From assembly GCA_964630525.1 (NCBI GenBank), contig CAZVUY010000002.1:33760-97759 (forward strand): a stretch of DNA of 64,000 nt. Reading direction: 5' to 3'. The notes under the pieces were generated by a model, which ran no database searches, was not told the DNA's origin, and was given only the letters and a program-made list of their open reading frames with translations. Position numbers and translations under genes: made by a program. Positions 3,221-61,050 of the stretch are shown one piece after another. Position 1 is the stretch's first letter. Every line of letters starts with the position of its first letter. The stretch comes from an uncultured Candidatus Saccharibacteria bacterium (GTDB taxonomy: Bacteria; Patescibacteriota; Minisyncoccia; Phycocordibacterales; WO2-35-19).

Positions 3221-5695
3221 ATGGCTAAAATGGCTAAAAAAGAGGAAAAAAACGATGAAATTCTAAATACTGGGTCTAGTGTGGTGTCGCGCTCGATCGT
3301 GACCGAGATGAAAAAATCCTTCATCGACTATGCCATGTCGGTGATCACTGATCGAGCTTTGCCGGATGTGCGCGATGGCCTAAAGCCGGTTCACCGCCGC
3401 ATTCTCTATGCCATGCATACCATGGGCCTCACCGCTTCGGCTAAGTCTCGAAAGTCGGCCACAGTGGTGGGAGAAGTTTTGGGTAACTACCACCCGCACG
3501 GCGATGTCGCTGCTTATGATGCGATGGTCAAGATGGCTCAAGATTTCGGCTATCGTTACCCACTGATCGTCGGTCAGGGAAACTTTGGTTCAATTGACGG
3601 AGATTCACCAGCGGCGATGCGTTACACCGAAGCCAAGATGAGTCGGATCGCCGGCGAACTTTTGCGTGATATAGGCAAGGAGACGGTCAATTGGGTACCC
3701 AACTACGATGCCACCAAAAAAGAGCCGGCAGTTTTGCCGAGCGCAGCTCCGCAGCTTTTGCTCAACGGCACCTTGGGTATTGCGGTTGGTATGGCGACCA
3801 ATGTGCCACCCCACAATCTAAGAGAAGTGGTAGATGCGACTGTTTATTTGATAGACAACAAAGAGGCGACAACTGAAGATTTGCTGGAATTTGTCCAAGG
3901 TCCGGATTTCCCACTGGGTGGTGTTATTTTCAATGCCAAAGATATCCAACATGCCTATTCGACTGGTCGCGGCGGGGTGGTTTGCCGAGGAGTGGCTGAG
4001 ATCGTGGAAGATAAAAATATTTCCCAAATAGTCATCACTTCTCTACCTTATCGAGTCAATAAACAGTCTCTTGTTGAAAAAATAGCAGAGTTGGTTCGTG
4101 ATAAAAAACTTGAAGGCATCAAGGGTTTGCGTGACGAATCGACCAAGGACATTCGAGTGGTGATCGATCTCAAAAACGGTAGTTATCCGCAAAAAGTACT
4201 CAACTTTCTCTATAAACACACTCAACTTGAGGAAACTTTCCATTTCAACTTGGTGGCGCTCGTAGACGGCGTACCTCAGACCCTTTCGCTCAAAGGTATT
4301 TTGGAGGAGTTTATCAAACATCGACAGATAGTGGTGCGTCGGCGCACCGAATTTGACTTGCGCGAAGCCGAAGCGAGAGAGCATATCTTGCTCGGTCTCA
4401 AAAAGGCACTTGATCATATCGACGAGATCATCAAATTGATCAAGAAGAGCAAGGACGTGGATACCGCTAGAGCAAACTTGATGAAGGAGTTCAAATTCTC
4501 CGAGATTCAAGCCAACGCTATTTTGGAAATGCGACTCCAGAAACTCGCCGGTCTTGAAAGGCAGAAGATCGAAGATGAACTCAATGCGGTGCAGGCTCTG
4601 ATCAAAGAACTCAAAGATATTCTAAGCAATCCCAAAAAGATCCTCTCTATTATCAAGAAGGAACTTTCTGAAATCAGTCAAAAATATGGCGATGATCGTC
4701 GTACCAAGGTGATCAAAGGCGGTGTCAAAGTGCTTTCGATCGAAGATTTGATCGCTGACGAAGACAACACCCTTATTCTGACTGCTGGTGGCTACGTGAA
4801 GCGCACTCACCCAGACGAATATCGCAAACAAAAACGCGGCGGGGTGGGAGTGGTTGATTTGGATACCAAGGAAGAAGATTTTGTAACCAACTTTTTAACA
4901 GCCAGCACTCATTCAGACCTCTTATTCTTCACGGATCGAGGTAAGGCTTACCAAATCAAGATGCACGAATTGCCGGAAGGCAAGCGAGCGACGCGCGGCA
5001 AGTCGATCATGAATTTCCTCTCGCTTTCGGAAGGGGAGAAGGTGACCTCAATCTTACCAATGCCTAAAAATTTGAAAGAAAATAAAGATTTGTCGCTACT
5101 TATGGTGACCAGCGATGGTACCGGCAAAAAAGTTTCAGCTGCCAGTTTCCATGATGTGCGAGCGAGCGGTATTATCGCGATCAGACTTTCTGATGGGGAT
5201 CGGTTGGTATCGGTTTCGGCGGTTACCAAGGGAGATACCTGTGTGGTAGTGACTGCCAAGGGCCAATCAATCCGGTTTAAGGAAAATGATGTTAGGGAAA
5301 TGGGTCGGACTGCCGGTGGAGTGAGAGTGATTAAGTTGAGCAAAAATGACCGGGTGGTTGGCGCTCATCCAGTACCGAAAGAAAAAGAGAAAGACGCTGC
5401 TCTTTTGACCATGGGTGCAGGTGGTTATGGCAAGAAGACTCCGATTGGTGAATACAAAATACAAAATCGTGGTGGCAGCGGTATCAAGACCAGCAATGTG
5501 ACAGCGAAGACTGGCGAGATTATCGCTTCAGCGGTGGTTACCGGTGAAGAGGAGGAGGCAGTGGCTATGTCTAAAAAGAGCCAAGTGATCCGCCTCGGCC
5601 TCTCTGAAATACCGTCATTGGGCCGCTCTACTCAAGGAGTCCGTATCATGAAGCTCTACCCTGGTGACTCCATCGCTTCTTTCATTTGTCTATAG
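3221..5695 (+). CDS. gyrA: DNA gyrase subunit A
   Basis: 824 aa; N-terminal [28 protein letters not shown] and HPHGD motif, active-site region [11 protein letters not shown]-terminal beta-pinwheel repeats. Confidence 0.95.
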
Positions 5696-6340
5696 TTCCT
5701 CCCAGTCAGTACAAAGGGTGCCCCTTTGCATGTAAATTCCCTTCGTTTCTTTTTCAAATCCTTCCTTGTTGCCAAAAATATTCGGAAAAATATCTTTTGA
5801 TATTATTGGCAAACTCACATTTCTTAAATTGGTAAAATCTGTAAAACTACTCCATTTATAGTTAATTGGACTATTAGTTAAGCCGTCTTTTACTGGGTTC
5901 ATATGTATATATGAAGATATCCACCTCAGCTGTTGATCTGTTTCAATCCTGACAGCCTTAAATTGATCCTGAAAAACATGACCCACTCTATTGTACTTTT
6001 TATTTATATACATTGAAAAACTGGTACACAATCTTAACATCAAACTCGAGATTGGTTGATTTTTTAATTGCTCTATAAGCAAATGAAAATGATTTGGCAT
6101 TAGACAAAATGCATGTATTTTAAATGAATTTTTATCTGCCGTGAATTTAATTCTTGATTTGGGGAAAAACAACAAATCATGATCCAGTTCTTTTTTATCA
6201 AAACCCAATGCCAAGCCTAATCTAAATAAAAAAGCTCTATTATCGTCATTATCAAGAAAAACTTTTTCTCGGTTATTACCTCTATTATAAACATGATAAA
6301 TAGAGTTCGGTTGAAAATTTTTATAATCTCTTTTTCTCAC
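5690..6340 (-). CDS. REP-associated tyrosine transposase (RayT / IS200-like Y1 HUH transposase)
   Basis: 216 aa with [10 protein letters not shown]...[13 protein letters not shown] (HUH motif) and a downstream Tyr region; flanked by inverted REP palindromes; its stop codon overlaps the gyrA stop by 6 nt. Confidence 0.8.
5712..5728. repeat. REP palindrome copy 1 (CAAAGGG-TGC-CCCTTTG)
   Basis: exact 17-mer; lies inside the RayT C-terminal coding region. Confidence 0.8.
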
Positions 6341-6353
6341 ACTTCAATTATAA

Positions 6354-6370
6354 CAAAGGGTGCCCCTTTG
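6354..6370. repeat. REP palindrome copy 2
   Basis: exact 17-mer ACAAAGGGTGCCCCTTTGT upstream of the RayT start. Confidence 0.8.
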
Positions 6371-6397
6371 TGCTACGTATTCAACAGTTTTTAGGGA

Positions 6398-8582: not shown

Positions 8583-8939
8583 ATGAAAAAACCAATCTAC
8601 CTCAAAATATTTATAACCTCCATTCTGGCTACACCGCTGTTTGCCTGGGCCTTCCCTCGAGATTTGACTGGGATTATAAACATGTTTATCGACATTGGTT
8701 TGCGAGTCATCCCGTTCCTCGGCACGGGCGCCTTCCTAGTATTCGTGCTCGGAGTTGCCAAGTTTATCCGATCAGCCGGTAGCGAAAAGGAGATCAAAGA
8801 TAGCAAAAATCTGCTGATCTGGGGTGTCGTCGGCCTTTTTGTGCTGGTCACAGTCTGGGGGATTGTCTCTTTTCTACGAAGCGAGTTTGGTTTTGAGGGT
8901 GGGGTAGGGATACCGCAGGTCAGATTGAAATCAAATTAA
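8583..8939 (+). CDS. TrbC/VirB2-like pilin paralogue 3
   Basis: 118 aa; signal peptide, TM1, K/E-rich loop (SEKEIKDSKN), TM2 LLIWGVVGLFVLVTVWGIVSF. Confidence 0.7.
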   Translation: MKKPIYLKIFITSILATPLFAWAFPRDLTGIINMFIDIGLRVIPFLGTGAFLVFVLGVAKFIRSAGSEKEIKDSKNLLIWGVVGLFVLVTVWGIVSFLRSEFGFEGGVGIPQVRLKSN

Positions 8940-8949
8940 TTTAAAAGTT

Positions 8950-9258
8950 ATGGGAATAGTTGGTATTATTGATTCGGCTACAAGTATAATCAAAAATGTG
9001 CTAATACCATTAGCTTTCGCTTTATGTTTGTTATATTTCTTTTGGGGTGTGGTGATATACATAAGGAAAGGGGTGGGTAGCGAAGAGGCCGCCAAAGAGG
9101 GCAAGAGGGTGATGGTATTCGGTATCATAGGTCTTTTTGTGGCGGTAGCGGTCTGGGGTATTGTATCTTTTATCCAAAGTGAGCTTGGTATTTTACCAAT
9201 TGAAAATATAGAAAGACCAGGATCAGAATATACCACCGAGAATATTATATACCAGTAA
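8950..9258 (+). CDS. TrbC/VirB2-like pilin paralogue 4
   Basis: 102 aa; same topology, VMVFGIIGLFVAVAVWGIVSFI. Confidence 0.7.
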   Translation: MGIVGIIDSATSIIKNVLIPLAFALCLLYFFWGVVIYIRKGVGSEEAAKEGKRVMVFGIIGLFVAVAVWGIVSFIQSELGILPIENIERPGSEYTTENIIYQ

Positions 9259-9278
9259 TAATTTATCAGACTTAGAAA

Positions 9279-9701
9279 ATGAAAATGCCAAATAAAAATT
9301 ATAGTTATCTTGCTTTAGTAATATTTTGTTGGCCTGTTTTTGCTGGTGCAGAAGTATTTGGTAAAACCAGAGGTATTTTGGAAAGTTTGGCTAGTATAGT
9401 AGGCAGAGTTTTGATACCACTCGTCTTTTCTTTGGCCGTACTCTTCTTTTTATATGGGGTGACCAAGTATATTTGGTCAGAAGGCGATAAGAAAGAAGAT
9501 GGAAAGAAGGTGATGGTCTGGGGGGTGGTCGCTTTATTTGTCATGTCCTCAGTGTGGGGCTTGGTGGCTTTTATTGAAAAGGAGCTTTTGGGTAGTTCTT
9601 CTCCTAAAAATGTTAAGATACCGACTATTGGAGGTTCTGCCAATGGTGGTGGTGATCCAGAGTGTGTACCGGATCCGATCAGTGGTAATCCTTGTCCGTA
9701 A
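9279..9701 (+). CDS. TrbC/VirB2-like pilin paralogue 5
   Basis: 140 aa; signal peptide, VMVWGVVALFVMSSVWGLVAFI, Gly/Cys-rich tail. Confidence 0.7.
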   Translation: MKMPNKNYSYLALVIFCWPVFAGAEVFGKTRGILESLASIVGRVLIPLVFSLAVLFFLYGVTKYIWSEGDKKEDGKKVMVWGVVALFVMSSVWGLVAFIEKELLGSSSPKNVKIPTIGGSANGGGDPECVPDPISGNPCP

Positions 9702-9799
9702 ATGTCCTGTGGATATTGTTTGATGTTTTATAAATAAAGTTATATACTGTTTAGGAAATTAAAATGGTCGTTCATTTTATTATTATTTTATAAAATTGT

Positions 9800-10153
9800 A
9801 TGAGTACAAAAATCAAAATCGGAACATTGGTGGCGAGCGCATTCTTTTTGCCTCTAGTTTCTTTTGCTGCTCTTGAGAATATTACTGAATTAGTTGGCGA
9901 TATCGGAGAGATCATCAACACTATTATTCCGATAATGTTTGCCATTGCTCTGATCGGTTTCTTCTATGGTTTGATCAAATACATCTTTGGTGCCGAGCAC
10001 GACAAAGAGGCAGCCAAGAAGACTATGATCTGGGGTATAGTAGCTCTTTTTGTTATGAGCGCTGTCTGGGGTCTTGTCAATTTCTTAGGAACCGCTGTAG
10101 GTGTTGATCCAACGGATGCACCGGATGTTAGTGGCTTGATTCCTAATAACTAG
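9800..10153 (+). CDS. TrbC/VirB2-like pilin paralogue 6
   Basis: 117 aa; TMIWGIVALFVMSAVWGLVNFL. Confidence 0.7.
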   Translation: MSTKIKIGTLVASAFFLPLVSFAALENITELVGDIGEIINTIIPIMFAIALIGFFYGLIKYIFGAEHDKEAAKKTMIWGIVALFVMSAVWGLVNFLGTAVGVDPTDAPDVSGLIPNN

Positions 10154-13410: not shown

Positions 13411-13437
13411 ATTTGGTTTACACTGAGCTTGTCGAAG

Positions 13438-13457
13438 TGTGCTGGGGAGGAGACTTG
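13438..13457. repeat. 20-nt direct repeat of the tRNA-Leu(TAG) 3' end (TGTGCTGGGGAGGAGACTTG)
   Basis: identical to 13595-13614 (T-arm 3' half plus acceptor 3' strand of the minus-strand tRNA-Leu); the two copies bracket 136 bp. Confidence 0.8.
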
Positions 13458-13596
13458 GTCACGCATAAAATTTTGCTAAATTTTTGCTCGACCCCGGCTC
13501 GGCTCGTCAGCCTCCGCCTTTCAAGTCAGTCTTACGCTTTTTTAAATTAAAAAAGCTAGACCCTCCCTAGCATAAAAATTCGCTAGGCTCATTTTG

Positions 13597-13679
13597 TGCT
13601 GGGGAGGAGACTTGAACTCCTAATCCACAAGGGAACTAGTTCCTAAGACTAGCGCGTATACCAATTCCGCCACCCCAGC
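13597..13679 (-). tRNA. tRNA-Leu (anticodon TAG)
   Basis: GCTGGGGTGGCGGAATTGGTATACGCGCTAGTCTTAGGAACTAG + long variable arm + GGAGTTCAAGTCTCCTCCCCAGCA. Confidence 0.85.
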
Positions 13680-21689: not shown

Positions 21690-21845
21690 TGGTGCGCCGG
21701 GAGGGAATTTCTCCCTCGACTCAAAATTTTTTCAGTCAAAAAATTTTGGTCTGGGCACCGGCTCATGGAAATTTTTTGCTAAAAATTTCACATTCCGCCG
21801 TTCGAATCCCTCACGCAAAGCAAGCAGTTGCTTTGCTCCGGCGCA
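21690..21845. repeat. structured repeat element A (~155 nt), homologous to element B at 60893-61050; ends form a 7-bp closing stem
   Basis: ~80% identity to 60893-61050 with compensatory changes in three hairpins; contains core GGAAATTTTTTGCTAAAAATTTC; 5' end TGCGCCGGGAGGGA repeats the tRNA-Tyr 3' end; on the minus strand it ends GAGGGAGAAATTCCCTCCCGGCGCACCA. Confidence 0.6.
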
Positions 21846-21878
21846 CAAAATGAAAACCCCTTTCGGGGATTCATTTTG

Positions 21879-21962
21879 TGCGCCGGGAGGGATTCGAACC
21901 CCCGTAGCCCGATGGGCGACAGATTTACAGTCTGTTGTAATTGACCACTCTACCACCGACGC
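21879..21962 (-). tRNA. tRNA-Tyr (anticodon GTA), long variable arm
   Basis: GCGTCGGTGGTAGAGTGGTCAATTACAACAGACTGTAAATCTGTCGCCCATCGGGCTACGGGGGTTCGAATCCCTCCCGGCGCA; followed by a 24-bp trailer hairpin (21831-21890) that includes the tRNA 3' end. Confidence 0.85.
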
Positions 21963-43735: not shown

Positions 43736-43889
43736 CCTAGCCCGCAAAATAGCTTCTCTTGCTCGATACGAAAATTTTCTGCTGAAAATTTTCTTGTCCT
43801 CAGCTTTAGAGCAGCTTCCCCGACCGAATCGCTTCGCGACTCGAAGCGGGCGGGCGGAATCTCGCTCGAGAACTATTTTGCGGGCTAGG
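43736..43889. repeat. palindromic repeat element S (154 bp) with perfect 17-bp terminal inverted repeat
   Basis: CCTAGCCCGCAAAATAG ... CTATTTTGCGGGCTAGG; interior GAAAATTTTCTGCTGAAAATTTTC core hairpin and CGCTTCGCGACTCGAAGCG hairpin; homologous to 49781-49897 (inverted) and 48960-49075. Confidence 0.75.
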
Positions 43890-47641: not shown

Positions 47642-47741
47642 AAAATGCCCCACCCCCAACCCCTCCCCAAAGGGGAGGGGAAAAACACAAAAAATCATTT
47701 CTTTGATCGGAATAGATAAAACAAAATATTTTTTACTTTCC

Positions 47742-47769
47742 AAAAAATGGCTCAGTTGAGCCATTTTTT
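47742..47769. terminator. bidirectional intrinsic terminator
   Basis: AAAAAATGGCTC-AGTT-GAGCCATTTTTT. Confidence 0.6.
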
Positions 47770-47812
47770 GGTTACCAAACCAAACAAAATGCATTTTTCG
47801 TGTCAAAATCCT

Positions 47813-47846
47813 TGACAATATTTGTGGTTGTGCTACACTATTTCCA
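47813..47846 (+). promoter_or_regulatory. sigma-70-like promoter TTGACA-N16/17-TACACT
   Basis: near-consensus -35 and -10 hexamers upstream of a small GC-rich transcription unit. Confidence 0.45.
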
Positions 47847-47894
47847 GTTAGCTTTTTCAATTTTGTTTGAATTTTTCGTTCGCAAGGAGTCAGT

Positions 47895-47963
47895 ATGAGT
47901 CACCACGCAAACCGGGTTGGCCCGGCGACCACCGTCGCCACCAGCCATAAGATAACGGCCTGA
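47895..47963 (+). CDS. candidate 22-aa small ORF (MSHHANRVGPATTVATSHKITA) inside a hairpin-rich sRNA-like unit
   Basis: AAGGAG 5 nt upstream of ATG; the ORF body is made of GC hairpins (CCGGGTTGGCCCGG, GCGACCACCGTCGC), so an RNA function is equally likely. Confidence 0.3.
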   Translation: MSHHANRVGPATTVATSHKITA

Positions 47964-48284
47964 ACTGCCGGCGCCGGGCCGCGAGCGACCAAAAGGTCGC
48001 TCGCGGCCAGCGAAAATGAAGATGGTGTTTACCCCAAGCCCCGCCCCCAAGTCTAAATGACAAGGGAGCCGGGGCTTTTTATTTGCTATATTTTGTTTGA
48101 CACAAATTTTTATTTTGCTATTATTTTTCTCATGACCAAGAGCTTCCTCTTCGAGTCACCAGCGTCGGTTTGCTCCGGCTAAGCCACTTACGGCTTTAGG
48201 AGTAATCCGATGCCCACCCCGCCCCTCTTATGGTACCTACCCAGAGAGGGGTTTTTAATTACTCAAGTATGGTTCCGGTAGGGT

Positions 48285-49535
48285 TTGGGTGTTAGGATAT
48301 TTCAAATGAAAAATTTTTGGAACAAAATGAAAAAGTCCCACGACGCTGAAGCTTTGCGGGATAAACCAATACTTTGCCTTGCTCCCATGGCTGATGTGAC
48401 TGATGCGGCATTCCGCTACATTATCGCTAAACACAGCAAAAATGACAAAGGGTGCCCCTTTGTCATTTGGACAGAATTTGTTTCGGCTGATGGGCTTGCT
48501 TTGGCGCCGGAGGAAGGTCGAAGGAAACTTTTGAAAGATTTGGAGTACAGCGAGATCGAACGGCCGATAGTCGCTCAGTTTTTTACTTCTCGGCCGGAAA
48601 ACATGGAGAAGGTAGCTCGGCTAGCGCTTGAACTTGGGTTTGATGGGGTGGATATCAACATGGGCTGTCCGGACAAGAGTATTGAAAAGCAGGGTGCCGG
48701 TGCTGCTCTCATTAAAAATCCTAGTTTGGCCAAAGAAATCATTTTGGCAGCGAGGCGGGGAGTAAATGATGAGATACCAGTTTCGGTCAAGACCCGGATT
48801 GGATATAACAAAGACGAAATCGAAACTTGGATACCAAATTTGCTAGAAGTTTCTCCGGCTGTCATCACCATTCACGCCCGCACTCGCAAAGAAATGTCAA
48901 AGGTAGCCGCAAGGTGGGAGCATGTGAAGCGAGCAGTTGAGATCAGAGATGAAATACAAAATTTTCCTCCACCACATCCCCAGAAATGCACGGATATTTT
49001 TCTGCTGAAAAATTCCTCGTGCTCGCCTCAGTCAGGCTCGCAAGGCATTTCTGGAGATATGGTTTCAGAAAATTTAAGAAAAACCCTGATTTTCGGCAAT
49101 GGGGATGTGGCAAGTGTAGCAGATGCTTATAAAAAAGCGGAGGAAACAGGAGCAGATGGAGTGATGCTCGGCCGAGCCATTTTCGGCAACCCGTTTCTAT
49201 TTGCTGGTTATGAACCGACTTGGCAGGAGAGGTTAGCGGTACTTGTAGAACATACTTTTTTGTTTGAAAAGAAATTTGGTGGGGTAAACCCTGTAGTAGA
49301 TTTTGGCATAGCACAAAGTGCGGATAAAAGATCCAATGCCAAAATTCACTACGGGGTAAAAAGCTTCGCGGTCATGAAAAAACATTTTAAATCATATTTA
49401 TCTTATGTTTCTCACGCCAAAGAAGATCCCGCTTGGCACCAGGCTGTCAAAAATTTACGCGAAGAATTGATGCTGGCTGAGAGTGCCTTAGCTGTGTCCG
49501 AACTGGTAGAAAAATTTTTGCTCAAGTATAATTAA
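48285..49535 (+). CDS. Dus family tRNA-dihydrouridine synthase carrying two in-frame repeat-derived insertions
   Basis: LAPMADVTD...FDGVDINMGCP...SVKTRIG...HARTR Dus TIM-barrel motifs; REP palindrome encodes NDKGCPFVIW (48442-48466); a ~110-bp palindromic repeat-family element encodes an extra ~45 aa (48950-49080); 416 aa versus ~320-350 typical. Confidence 0.8.
   Translation: MGVRIFQMKNFWNKMKKSHDAEALRDKPILCLAPMADVTDAAFRYIIAKHSKNDKGCPFVIWTEFVSADGLALAPEEGRRKLLKDLEYSEIERPIVAQFFTSRPENMEKVARLALELGFDGVDINMGCPDKSIEKQGAGAALIKNPSLAKEIILAARRGVNDEIPVSVKTRIGYNKDEIETWIPNLLEVSPAVITIHARTRKEMSKVAARWEHVKRAVEIRDEIQNFPPPHPQKCTDIFLLKNSSCSPQSGSQGISGDMVSENLRKTLIFGNGDVASVADAYKKAEETGADGVMLGRAIFGNPFLFAGYEPTWQERLAVLVEHTFLFEKKFGGVNPVVDFGIAQSADKRSNAKIHYGVKSFAVMKKHFKSYLSYVSHAKEDPAWHQAVKNLREELMLAESALAVSELVEKFLLKYN
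48446..48462. repeat. REP palindrome copy 3 (in frame inside dus); extended 25-nt palindrome 48442-48466
   Basis: ATGACAAAGGG-TGC-CCCTTTGTCAT; core identical to the RayT-flanking REPs. Confidence 0.8.
48960..49075. repeat. palindromic repeat element D (in frame inside dus)
   Basis: terminal IR CAGAAATGC...GCATTTCTG; interior TTTTCTGCTGAAAA...CCTCAG homologous to element S. Confidence 0.65.
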
Positions 49536-49538
49536 ACT

Positions 49539-49763
49539 ATGGAATTTGATCTGATACCGTTTTTGAGCTTTTCTTTTTCTGCTGCCACTTTGGCCAGGTT
49601 GGTCTTTTATCTGGTGGTTTTGTTTGTCGGTGTCACTTCTGCTATTTTGTTTTTCCACTGGCGCCGCTATGGTCTGTCGAAAGGGGTGATCGCGGTGACC
49701 GAGACCATTTATTTTTCAGTCTGCGTACTGCTTGTCGGAGCCGCTTTTTTGGCACTACCTTAG
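49539..49763 (+). CDS. hypothetical two-TM small membrane protein
   Basis: 74 aa. Confidence 0.4.
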   Translation: MEFDLIPFLSFSFSAATLARLVFYLVVLFVGVTSAILFFHWRRYGLSKGVIAVTETIYFSVCVLLVGAAFLALP

Positions 49764-49780
49764 TATTTTATTATTTTTAT

Positions 49781-49897
49781 GACTTACGCAAAAATAGTTC
49801 TTGAGCGAGATTCCGGAAGCTGCCGGAAAGCTGAGGACAAGGAAATTTTTAGCAAAAAATTTCCGTATCGAGCGAAAGAAACTATTTTGGAGTAAGT
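49781..49897. repeat. palindromic repeat element C (117 bp), inverted orientation relative to S
   Basis: GACTTACGCAAAAATAGTTCTTGAGCGAG ... CTATTTTGGAGTAAGTC; reverse complement aligns with element S except for a 38-bp internal deletion; contains GGAAATTTTTAGCAAAAAATTTCC. Confidence 0.75.
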
Positions 49898-49911
49898 CTT
49901 ATTTTTTTGAA

Positions 49912-50445
49912 ATGATTAAATTTGAAGAAGGCGAACAGAATCTCAAAGTGATCCGGAGGCACTGGTTTGTGATATTACCGATCTTGATCGGTACTGTTAT
50001 TTTGGCTCTGGCCCCACTTGTTTTGTTTTATGTTTTCACTTCAGACCTTATCCAGACTGACAATTTTATAGCCAAAGAGAACATTAGCCAATTTCAATCT
50101 TTTGTTGCAGAGTGGCAAACTTTTCTTTATGCCATCTGGCTCCTGTTGCTCTGGACTTTCTTTTTCATCGAGTGGACTGATTATTATCTAGACCTTTGGG
50201 TTATCACCGATCGGCGGATTATTGACGTCGAGCAAAAAGGTTTTTTCCATCGCGAAGTGACCAGCTTTGCTTATAACCAGATTCAAGATATCACTGTCGA
50301 AACCAAGGGTTTACTCGAGACATTTTTAAAATTTGGCACCCTACATATCCAAACTGCCGGTCACAACCGAGATATCATCATCAAATCAGCTCAAAGTCCG
50401 GAAGAGGCTAGGTCTTTGATTTTGAGAATACAAGGGAAATTGTAA
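49912..50445 (+). CDS. bacterial PH-domain (YdbS/YdbT-like, DUF304) membrane protein; start moved downstream of the repeat element (track ORF begins 49801)
   Basis: two TMs then a PH-like beta-sandwich segment (VITDRRIIDVEQKG...). Confidence 0.55.
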   Translation: MIKFEEGEQNLKVIRRHWFVILPILIGTVILALAPLVLFYVFTSDLIQTDNFIAKENISQFQSFVAEWQTFLYAIWLLLLWTFFFIEWTDYYLDLWVITDRRIIDVEQKGFFHREVTSFAYNQIQDITVETKGLLETFLKFGTLHIQTAGHNRDIIIKSAQSPEEARSLILRIQGKL

Positions 50446-60796: not shown

Positions 60797-60892
60797 AAAT
60801 TACAGTATAACAAAAGTTCACATAATTTTTAAATATATTTTCCAGGAGCAACAACAAAAAACCGCCCTATAAGGGCGATTTTCATGTTGGCT

Positions 60893-61050
60893 GCTCCGGG
60901 AGCAGGGGGTATCTCCCTCGACTCAAAAATTTGTCGGCCACAAATTTTTGGTCTAGGCACCGGCTCGCTAAATTTTGTGCTCAAAATTTTCAGCTCCGCC
61001 GTTCGATCCCTGACGAAAGTGCAATTCAATGCACTTTCTCTCCTCGGAGC
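60893..61050. repeat. structured repeat element B (copy of element A)
   Basis: aligns with 21694-21844 at ~80% identity with compensatory hairpin changes (CAAAGCAAG..CTTGCTTTG vs GAAAGTGCA..TGCACTTTC); closing stem GCTCCG/CGGAGC. Confidence 0.6.

Follow-up and report, generated by a model that had tools for sequence, protein, structure and literature searches.

Three in-frame palindromic repeats of different families in loop-coding segments of a Patescibacteria dus gene

The gene analysed here, dus, encodes a tRNA-dihydrouridine synthase (Dus) and lies in a 64,000-nucleotide stretch of contig CAZVUY010000002.1 from an uncultured Candidatus Saccharibacteria bacterium; this whole stretch is referred to as the window. 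The open reading frame (ORF) was assigned to Dus by Pfam family PF01207 (E 6e-51), as an earlier note drawn up from the sequence alone had proposed, and its best NCBIfam match is DusB, with a score below the cutoff of that model. The protein has the Dus domain, the catalytic cysteine within NMGCP, and an FMN-binding TIM barrel followed by a helical domain. The same note had described two repeat elements of two families that interrupt dus in frame. Both are real, but the gene holds three in-frame inserts from three families, the one at the 3′ side having been missed (Table). We consider it likely that dus was colonised three separate times by small, non-autonomous, hairpin-forming repeats, in frame and only in loops, and that Dus kept working.

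Table. Positions in the 64-kb window of dus, its three inserts and the related repeats and transposase gene (CM, covariance model).
Feature	Position	Strand	Details
dus (tRNA-dihydrouridine synthase)	48285-49535	+	416 codons from TTG (longest ORF)
Insert 1, perfect 27-nt hairpin	48441-48467	+	12-bp arms, 3-nt loop: AATGACAAAGGG TGC CCCTTTGTCATT
Insert 2, Y-shaped palindromic element, ~117 nt	48959-49075	+	conserved core 48975-49058
Insert 3, 68-nt palindromic element	49289-49356	+	21-nt arms CCCTGTAGTAGATTTTGGCAT / ATGCCAAAATTCACTACGGGG, two small inner hairpins
Insert-2 family copy 2 (el43 subtype)	49798-49881	-	CM 49.8 bits, E 3e-13
Insert-2 family copy 3 (larger variant)	43736-43889 (CM span 43753-43852)	+	intergenic; arms GCCCGCAAAATAG / CTATTTTGCGGGC
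Insert-2 family copy 4, diverged	13447-13532	+	intergenic, beside tRNA cluster; CM 32.6 bits, E 1e-7
Y1 (HUH) transposase gene, IS200-like/RAYT-like	5690-6340	-	216 codons; PF01797, E 3.4e-14
Hairpin copy A (ACAAAGGGTGCCCCTTTGC)	5710-5728	+	3′ end of Y1 gene, 15 nt past gyrA stop
Hairpin copy B (ACAAAGGGTGCCCCTTTGT)	6352-6370	+	12 nt upstream of Y1 start codon

The Dus protein was aligned with its 120 closest homologues. Its nearest relatives are metagenomic proteins, and the named ones belong to Candidatus Zambryskibacteria and other Parcubacteria/Paceibacteria. Because homologues start at MKNFW, the true start of dus is probably the ATG at 48306 (MKNFW...). The gene order clpB-like / dus / small ORF / bPH / PAP2 / ATP synthase is kept in the contigs of the closest orthologues; neither the small ORF nor the bPH gene is present in two more distant ones, L085 and L086. 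The window's protein owes its extra length to +5, +39 and +24 residues at three loops and to shared N- and C-terminal extras. The earlier note attributed it to two inserts; the 24 codons of insert 3 account for much of it.

A 4-bp direct duplication, TAAA, lies on either side of insert 3 (49285-49288 and 49357-49360). Element and duplication together comprise 72 nt, or 24 codons (VNPVVDFGIAQSADKRSNAKIHYG, one of several equivalent placements given the duplicated GGGGTAAA), and the insert is hence in frame. Its fold has an energy of -42.8 kcal/mol (z = -7.4). Between E329 and K359 the window's protein has 29 residues, the longest segment of the set, versus five residues in 102 of the 120 homologues, and the insert is unique to the window's Dus among them. 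All five orthologues read at the DNA level (L082, L083, L081, L084 and L086) have the bare site; they include the two nearest, L083 and L082, with 94 and 88% identity over aligned columns, respectively. In these two the empty site reads TTTGGTGGGGTAAA/AAGCTTC (that is, GGGGTAAA/AAGC), whereas the filled site in the window reads ...GGGGTAAA, then the 68-nt element (CCCTGTAGTAG...CACTACGGGG), then TAAAAAGC. Relatives of insert 3 were found at three other loci, L017, L089 and L063. The L017 copy is reversed, lies right after the dus stop codon and has the same arms but different inner hairpins, with pairing kept; the L089 copy has CAAG on both sides and paired changes in its arms. Insert 3 thus combines inverted arms, a target duplication and an empty site in relatives, the features of a MITE (miniature inverted-repeat transposable element), and appears to be a recent, classical insertion of this kind, the youngest of the three.

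Insert 2 folds into a long outer stem around two inner hairpins, GGATATTTTTC-TGCT-GAAAAATTCC and TGC-TC-GCCT-CAGTC-AGGC-TC-GCA, with an energy of -42.9 kcal/mol (z = -5.75 versus shuffles). Its own inverted repeat, CAGAAATGC (48981-48989) / GCATTTCTG (49045-49053), is as first reported. The element had been credited with ~45 extra residues; 45 residues do separate R221 from T267, but six stand there in 40 of the 120 closest homologues, so that the extra segment comprises ~39 residues (NFPPPHPQKCTDIFLLKNSSCSPQSGSQGISGDMVSENL). Insert 2 is present at the same Dus loop in 15 of the 120 homologues. The syntenic orthologues L081, L082, L083, L085 and L086 carry it there, with Dus identity down to ~55-60%; in L084 the core and the right arm are gone by an in-frame deletion, and in homologue P0005 the core has been deleted with nothing else altered. 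The sharing of the extra segments by orthologues in unrelated lineages had been put forward as a refutation of their being repeats. This test was badly posed: orthologues do share insert 2, and yet it is still a repeat, an old and inherited one. The first-loop inserts of other Dus orthologues belong to the insert-2 family as well, reversed or in another frame: that of L083 is a reversed element (87% identity on the opposite strand), and those of L006, P0012 and P0014 are forward elements in a different frame.

The family is widely dispersed. A metagenome scan with an exact pattern of 30 nt from the insert-2 core returned at least 122 copies in at least 120 contigs, with all six reading frames in use; the core itself is open in five of the six. 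About 20 copies among the matches listed lie in frame inside Pfam-verified genes, with a long ORF on either side, so that at least ~16% of the sampled copies are in frame within verified housekeeping genes. Coding copies among these matches were always open and in frame. The hosts belong to 12 families: TsaD, MnmA, KsgA, RsmE, SpoU and TGT (tRNA/rRNA modification), UvrD and RecG (DNA repair), PheT and IF-2 (translation), a NifS-like aminotransferase (Aminotran_5) and a PMT_2 glycosyltransferase. In the NifS-like gene the element occurs in both orientations at one loop. Copies read in frame 2 carry a rare CC..GG stem variant that avoids a TGA/TAA/TAG stop. When 1.84 billion representative proteins were searched with the 39-residue peptide of insert 2, four matches were obtained in all, one of them spurious (a chitin-binding repeat protein), and the peptide was found within a FolD and a KsgA. 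Intergenic copies occur at L056, at L059 and at three places in the window; no copies were found in viral contigs.

A covariance model built from 99 copies identified four full-length family members in the window, the dus copy and the three intergenic ones. Copy 2, 87% identical to 43745-43819, is located in the spacer that follows the small ORF downstream of dus and precedes the bPH gene; it is upstream of the codon at which the latter probably starts (M38 of a 214-codon ORF; orthologous bPH genes encode 172-186 aa). In Rfam searches, only tRNAs were found over the window at the gathering threshold, and nothing meaningful in 48200-49950 at E <= 10.

Three ideas about this family were considered and rejected. 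Copies in or next to dus at L006, L017, L056 and L083 had suggested that the element belongs to dus alone, perhaps as an autoregulatory structure resembling a tRNA, but the first loci were all dus-centred, which biased the sample, and among the matches listed, from at least 120 metagenome contigs, the copies are in other contexts, none of them in Dus. The outer arms could have been copy-specific inverted duplications of the target; however, copies within one genome share arms (L122; the window copies at 43736 and 49798), sub-families share arms (e.g. AAATAGCTCTTCTC), and orthologous copies differ by paired changes. Finally, minimum-free-energy folds were tried for setting the ends and target duplications of individual copies and were abandoned because their stems were over-extended. 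Some contigs hold two family members in or next to one gene: at L122 (1986-3062) one copy lies just upstream of mnmA and another within it, and the TGT gene of L189 (554-2107) has one verified copy plus a second similar peptide (NSSCLRQSRSQV).

Insert 1 is the palindrome reported earlier as 25 nt long (48442-48466); it is real but extends over 27 nt, and no such match was seen in 100 shuffles. It encodes NDKGCPFVI at residues ~53-61 (KNDKGCPFV). The hairpin does lie inside a loop, but as an insertion it brings barely any net gain, +4-5 residues over the shortest orthologues; several others are about equal in length, and P0007 is one residue off the window's protein. Between the window and L082 it shows one compensatory and one uncompensated change. 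Its 15-nt core AAAGGGTGCCCCTTT, which includes the loop, occurs exactly three times in the window, always on the + strand, versus 0 expected. The other two copies, hairpins A and B, are direct repeats 642 nt apart that bracket the Y1 gene, and all three copies share the orientation, the TGC loop and an identical core. With four copies of the insert-2 family and three of the hairpin in the window, the earlier statement that both segments belong to dispersed repeat families and keep the frame holds. The only NCBIfam match of the Y1 gene is the REP-associated tyrosine transposase NF047646, at 74.7 bits versus a cutoff of 80. Hairpins at both ends, on one strand, and the lack of terminal inverted repeats fit the IS200 type of architecture. 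Transposases of the IS200/IS605 family and of the REP/RAYT type (repetitive extragenic palindromes and their REP-associated tyrosine transposases) act on hairpins in single-stranded DNA. Judged by its sequence, the hairpin in dus is a solo copy of the one found at both ends of the Y1 unit, and it was presumably moved by a Y1 transposase.

The Y1 unit (5690-6371) directly follows gyrA (3221-5695), and the final codons of the Y1 ORF (QRGTLC) run through hairpin A. A Y1 homologue with 26% identity to that of the window was found at L025 (1302-2068), enclosed by inverted repeats of 47 nt that lie 673 nt from each other, an end architecture that differs from that of the window's unit. It was considered as a mobiliser of the insert-2 family and set aside, as its inverted repeats are uninformative on that family.

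In the scenario that we favour, in which dus was repeatedly colonised by such elements, each of them would have landed or survived only in a loop of Dus and at a length that keeps the frame, and would therefore be translated as an extra surface peptide, presumably a harmless one. Insert 2 would be old: an ancestor of a large Paceibacteria (Zambryskibacteria-like) group would have acquired it in the alpha-to-beta loop that precedes the GNGD strand, and it would have been inherited from then on. Insert 3, a MITE-like element of 68 nt with its 4-bp target duplication, would be the latest arrival. Insert 1, as a solo copy of the Y1-unit hairpin, would overprint a hypervariable loop more than lengthen it. 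Transposition is the probable mode of movement of all three elements, with a footprint for insert 3 only.

Several observations weigh against this scenario. The right arm of insert 1 (CCCTTTGTCATTTGG = PFVIW) overlaps codons that are conserved among orthologues (HFVIW, SYVTW; [PSH][FY]V[IT]W), and no further copy of the hairpin was found in 1.7 Mb of other loci, which leaves the total at three. For insert 2, a target duplication could not be delimited, minimum-free-energy folds having proved unreliable for this purpose. No mobilising partner for the insert-2 and insert-3 families was found in the window or in 206 loci, where only Y1 homologues were sought. The tract that is 100% identical between the window and L082 spans ~180 nt and so is slightly wider than insert 2, within a mosaic identity profile; recombination between strains may for this reason add to the apparent conservation of the insert. 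Finally, the search for a second dus, in which none was found, covered the 64-kb window.

The position of the right arm of insert 1 on conserved codons suggests that this palindrome was possibly completed partly in place; part of it may have arisen there. A broader version of this idea holds that the palindromes, chiefly the insert-1 hairpin, were built in place by replication template switching (quasi-palindrome correction). Template switching at quasi-palindromes copies one arm from the other, and the arms seen here are near-perfectly Watson-Crick paired without wobble, as if that had happened; moreover, the dus hairpin has a stem of 12 bp versus 7-8 bp in both transposase-flanking copies. 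We nevertheless regard an origin of the palindromes in place as unlikely. The 15-nt identity with both transposase-flanking hairpins, including the asymmetric TGC loop, cannot be chance, and elements related to inserts 2 and 3 occur at unrelated loci; insert 3 has its target duplication in addition. Once an element is inserted, its arms may well be maintained by template switching, which is compatible with the colonisation of dus by mobile repeats.

The way in which insert 2 varies bears on what is being conserved. Its nucleotide identity to L082, L083, L081 and L085 is 100, 98, 91 and 84%, respectively, versus 83 (82.6), 88, 76 and 64% for the Dus core. Although L082 differs from the window at half of the synonymous sites of the Dus core, the two agree in insert 2 at all 123 nt (100%), and the ~55-nt core of the element is >90% identical across lineages whose Dus proteins are ~50-60% identical. 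Where the stems do change, they change in pairs, as from ATTTTTC/GAAAAAT to ATTTCTT/AAGAAAT or from GCCT/AGGC to GGCT/AGCC or GCTT/AAGC; all differences between the orthologous mnmA copies (L122, L198) are paired changes. In a set of 113 copies, the proportion of paired cells is 81.6%, versus 61% in shuffled data and at most 53% when the partners are slid, and double-change cells number 1117 versus 429 shuffled. At the three variable pairs of inner hairpin 1, 336 of 339 cells are Watson-Crick, although the search pattern allowed mismatches there. The unpaired TGCT loop and TC bulges are invariant throughout these copies. A near-constant core and stems that drift only by Watson-Crick pairs therefore suggest that the constraint acts on DNA (or nucleic-acid) structure and not on the insert-2 peptide.

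The very stable predicted fold, the strong covariation and the invariant unpaired residues would also suit a functional mRNA element, either regulatory or an excised intervening sequence, and the covariation could then stem from selection on RNA structure. We consider this quite improbable. The element occurs in both orientations relative to its host gene, even at one and the same loop in NifS and in Dus, and its transcript would therefore often bear the complement. G.T pairs (2.9%) are no commoner than A.C (3.9%), unlike the enrichment of G.U in real structured RNAs; together with the two orientations in genes, this argues for pairing at the DNA level and against a function in RNA structure. 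Excision would not need coding copies to be open and in frame, as they always are among the matches listed, nor would it need frame-2 copies to avoid a stop, and there is no Rfam match. Two causes would fit the pairing in DNA: selection for a foldable single strand that is recognised by a protein, or copying of one arm from the other by template switching. As a tentative extension, insert 2 might be a long-lived structured-DNA module with a core recognised by a conserved Paceibacteria protein, and not a decaying MITE, though we lean against rather than towards this idea. If true, it would represent a new hairpin-dependent single-strand transposon system or a host-adopted site, and dozens of essential proteins across much of the CPR (candidate phyla radiation) would have been reshaped by it.

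The inserts could instead be lineage-specific protein insertions that are kept for a peptide function in Dus, such as tRNA or partner binding, with their palindromy incidental. That 15 of the 120 closest homologues retain insert 2 at one loop, and that the peptide QKCTDIFLLKNSSCS.QS.SQGIS is recognisably conserved, would agree with this, as would the five open frames of the core. However, the same DNA is found in six frames, in both orientations, in 14 unrelated gene families and in intergenic DNA. The dN/dS ratio of insert 2 is 0.5-0.9 versus 0.07-0.12 for the Dus core, its synonymous sites are more conserved than those of the host gene, and its amino-acid changes come in pairs dictated by stem pairing. 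The segment is modelled as coil with a per-residue confidence (pLDDT) of ~50, and P0005 lost the core without other change. A peptide function is thus largely refuted already, and we give it very little credence.

Apart from the inserts, dus has the appearance of a working gene. The reading frame is open across all three elements, and NMGCPD, K169, H197 and R199 are invariant across the aligned homologues. By its dN/dS, which was obtained among insert-bearing orthologues with half to fully saturated synonymous sites, the Dus core is under strong purifying selection. An AlphaFold (AF2) model computed from the 120 homologues has a mean pLDDT of 86 and a predicted TM score (pTM) of 0.84; pLDDT exceeds 90 in the barrel and the C-terminal helices and falls to ~50 only at residues 226-261 and 332-359, which are coil. 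Target-normalised TM scores to solved Dus and Dus-tRNA crystal structures are 0.76-0.83. In this model all three inserts fall between secondary-structure elements. Insert 1 is a confidently predicted short loop between helix 41-51 and strand 59-67, insert 2 is low-confidence coil in the loop from helix 212-225 to strand 268-272, and insert 3 is low-confidence coil in the loop joining two helices of the C-terminal domain. Structure prediction had been proposed as a check on loop placement, and it places the two long inserts as coil outside the barrel strands and helices and the short one in a modelled loop. The helix-to-strand loops of a TIM barrel form the face opposite the active site, so that inserts 1 and 2 would lie on the face of Dus that points away from it. 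The selection on the core, the invariant catalytic residues and the confident model agree with the first of the two outcomes envisaged in the earlier note, tolerated surface insertions, rather than with the second, pseudogenisation; as far as sequence tells, Dus tolerates its inserts and the gene is not in decay. That dus is becoming a pseudogene, with the inserts as early damage in a dispensable gene, would suit three insertions in one 1.2-kb gene, the reduced genomes of the CPR and a second dus that may lie outside the 64-kb window, but it is hardly credible given the frame open through three inserts, the invariant catalytic motifs, the core dN/dS in insert-bearing orthologues and the passage of insert 2 through speciation in syntenic loci.

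The closest likeness in behaviour is to the Rickettsia palindromic elements (RPE; Ogata et al. 2000), several ~100-150-bp palindromic families that, according to a review (PMC10969869), often lie in frame in unrelated metabolic genes. As far as that account goes, both kinds of element have no gene of their own, form dispersed families, sit in frame in unrelated housekeeping genes, encode a conserved peptide, occupy sites compatible with the fold and reside in a reduced host genome. In the present case, the elements are dispersed short palindromes, they are in frame in unrelated genes, and their positions in the AF2 model are compatible with loops. They differ in their host (Patescibacteria/Paceibacteria) and are unrelated in sequence as far as examined, and we claim no homology to RPE. 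In the insert-2 family, moreover, the conserved part is the centre, two small hairpins with invariant loops, whereas the long outer stem varies through paired changes; at one orthologous site a copy has been passed down over a deep divergence (Dus identity ~55-60%), and three different families are present within one gene. By analogy, the Patescibacteria elements seem to be that group's own version of in-frame selfish DNA, RPE-like in behaviour but in another phylum.

Insert 1 invites comparison with IS200/IS605, REP/RAYT and derived palindrome-associated transposable elements (PATE), as a Y1 HUH gene is bounded by short hairpins on the same strand and a solo copy lies in dus. The label 'REP' that had been given to it points in the right direction, since the same hairpin bounds a Y1 gene, but is only loosely justified. 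Typical RAYT loci have inverted flanking REPs with a 5′ GTAG; hairpins A and B are direct and have no GTAG motif beside them, the NCBIfam score is just below the cutoff, and the 64 kb contain three copies. REPs are moreover abundant, with tens to hundreds of copies, and extragenic by definition, whereas the solo hairpin lies in coding sequence. ERIC, BOX and Correia/NEMIS are short structured non-autonomous repeats with some copies within or fused to ORFs (PMC10969869). Insert 3, with its classical inverted arms and short target duplication, resembles ERIC, BOX and Correia elements, but their in-frame insertion into essential enzymes is exceptional, in contrast to the proportion of insert-2 copies in verified housekeeping genes. 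Mitochondrial genes of Nematomorpha contain long inverted repeats in coding sequence with both arms translated (PMC6649704); those repeats are gene-specific and perfect, whereas the insert-2 family is dispersed with a conserved core. A full-text literature search, whose coverage was incomplete, returned no description of such elements in CPR/Patescibacteria.

Rickettsia is the best-known case of in-frame selfish DNA within essential genes. Such DNA seems to be frequent in Patescibacteria as well, a very large group that has tiny genomes and is for the most part uncultured, and it would explain many of the odd low-complexity insertions of CPR proteins. For annotators and structure predictors this is a warning that such segments are repeat DNA and not protein domains. 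The inserts likewise amount to a natural experiment on the question of which loops of an enzyme can accommodate 25-40 additional residues. The conserved core, and insertion polymorphism combined with target duplication, could serve as sequence markers for strain tracking and for finding the mobilising enzyme, and the occurrence of a hairpin in coding sequence together with a Y1 transposase unit in the same window offers a directly testable lead on mechanism.

Further repeats were noted in Dus homologues and around dus. The clade alignment contains at least four more hypervariable in-frame insertion loops, with examples such as LRQAQG[HE]R before IPVSVKTR, EEPVSTRRDLSSRGG before WIPNLL and FDKLRAN at loop 1; to judge from their sequences, several of these inserts resemble GC-rich repeats that have been translated. 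Upstream of dus, the 640-nt spacer that separates it from the clpB-like gene (47642-48285) includes a GC-rich, strongly self-complementary stretch at ~47870-48080 and a segment with a terminator-like hairpin at its end (CCCCTCTT...AGAGAGGGGTTTTT, ~48225-48262), and had no meaningful Rfam match at E <= 1. In the same spacer, CCCCACCCCCAACCCCTCCCCAAAGGGGAGGGG (47646-47680) would read ...PLPFGEGLGVG... on the opposite strand and resembles LPFGEGVGGG and PSPLQGEGVGGE at the insert-2 loop of other Dus proteins (L006, 6001-7230; P0051, P0098); on this similarity, it looks like yet another palindromic family landing in dus.

Elsewhere in the window, partial duplicates of tRNA 3′ ends adjoin palindromic elements at 13432-13463, 21693-21720 and 60892-61018, the tRNAs being tRNA-Leu (13596-13679) and tRNA-Tyr (21878-21962), and region 21693-21818 shares 78% identity with region 60892-61018. 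Remnants of attachment sites could account for these duplicates; alternatively, tRNA 3′ ends may be what the elements target. Finally, 8815-10107 contains four direct repeats of ~82 nt, 61-72% identical to the reference copy, spaced 298-512 nt apart and apparently coding, which are probably a repeated protein domain.

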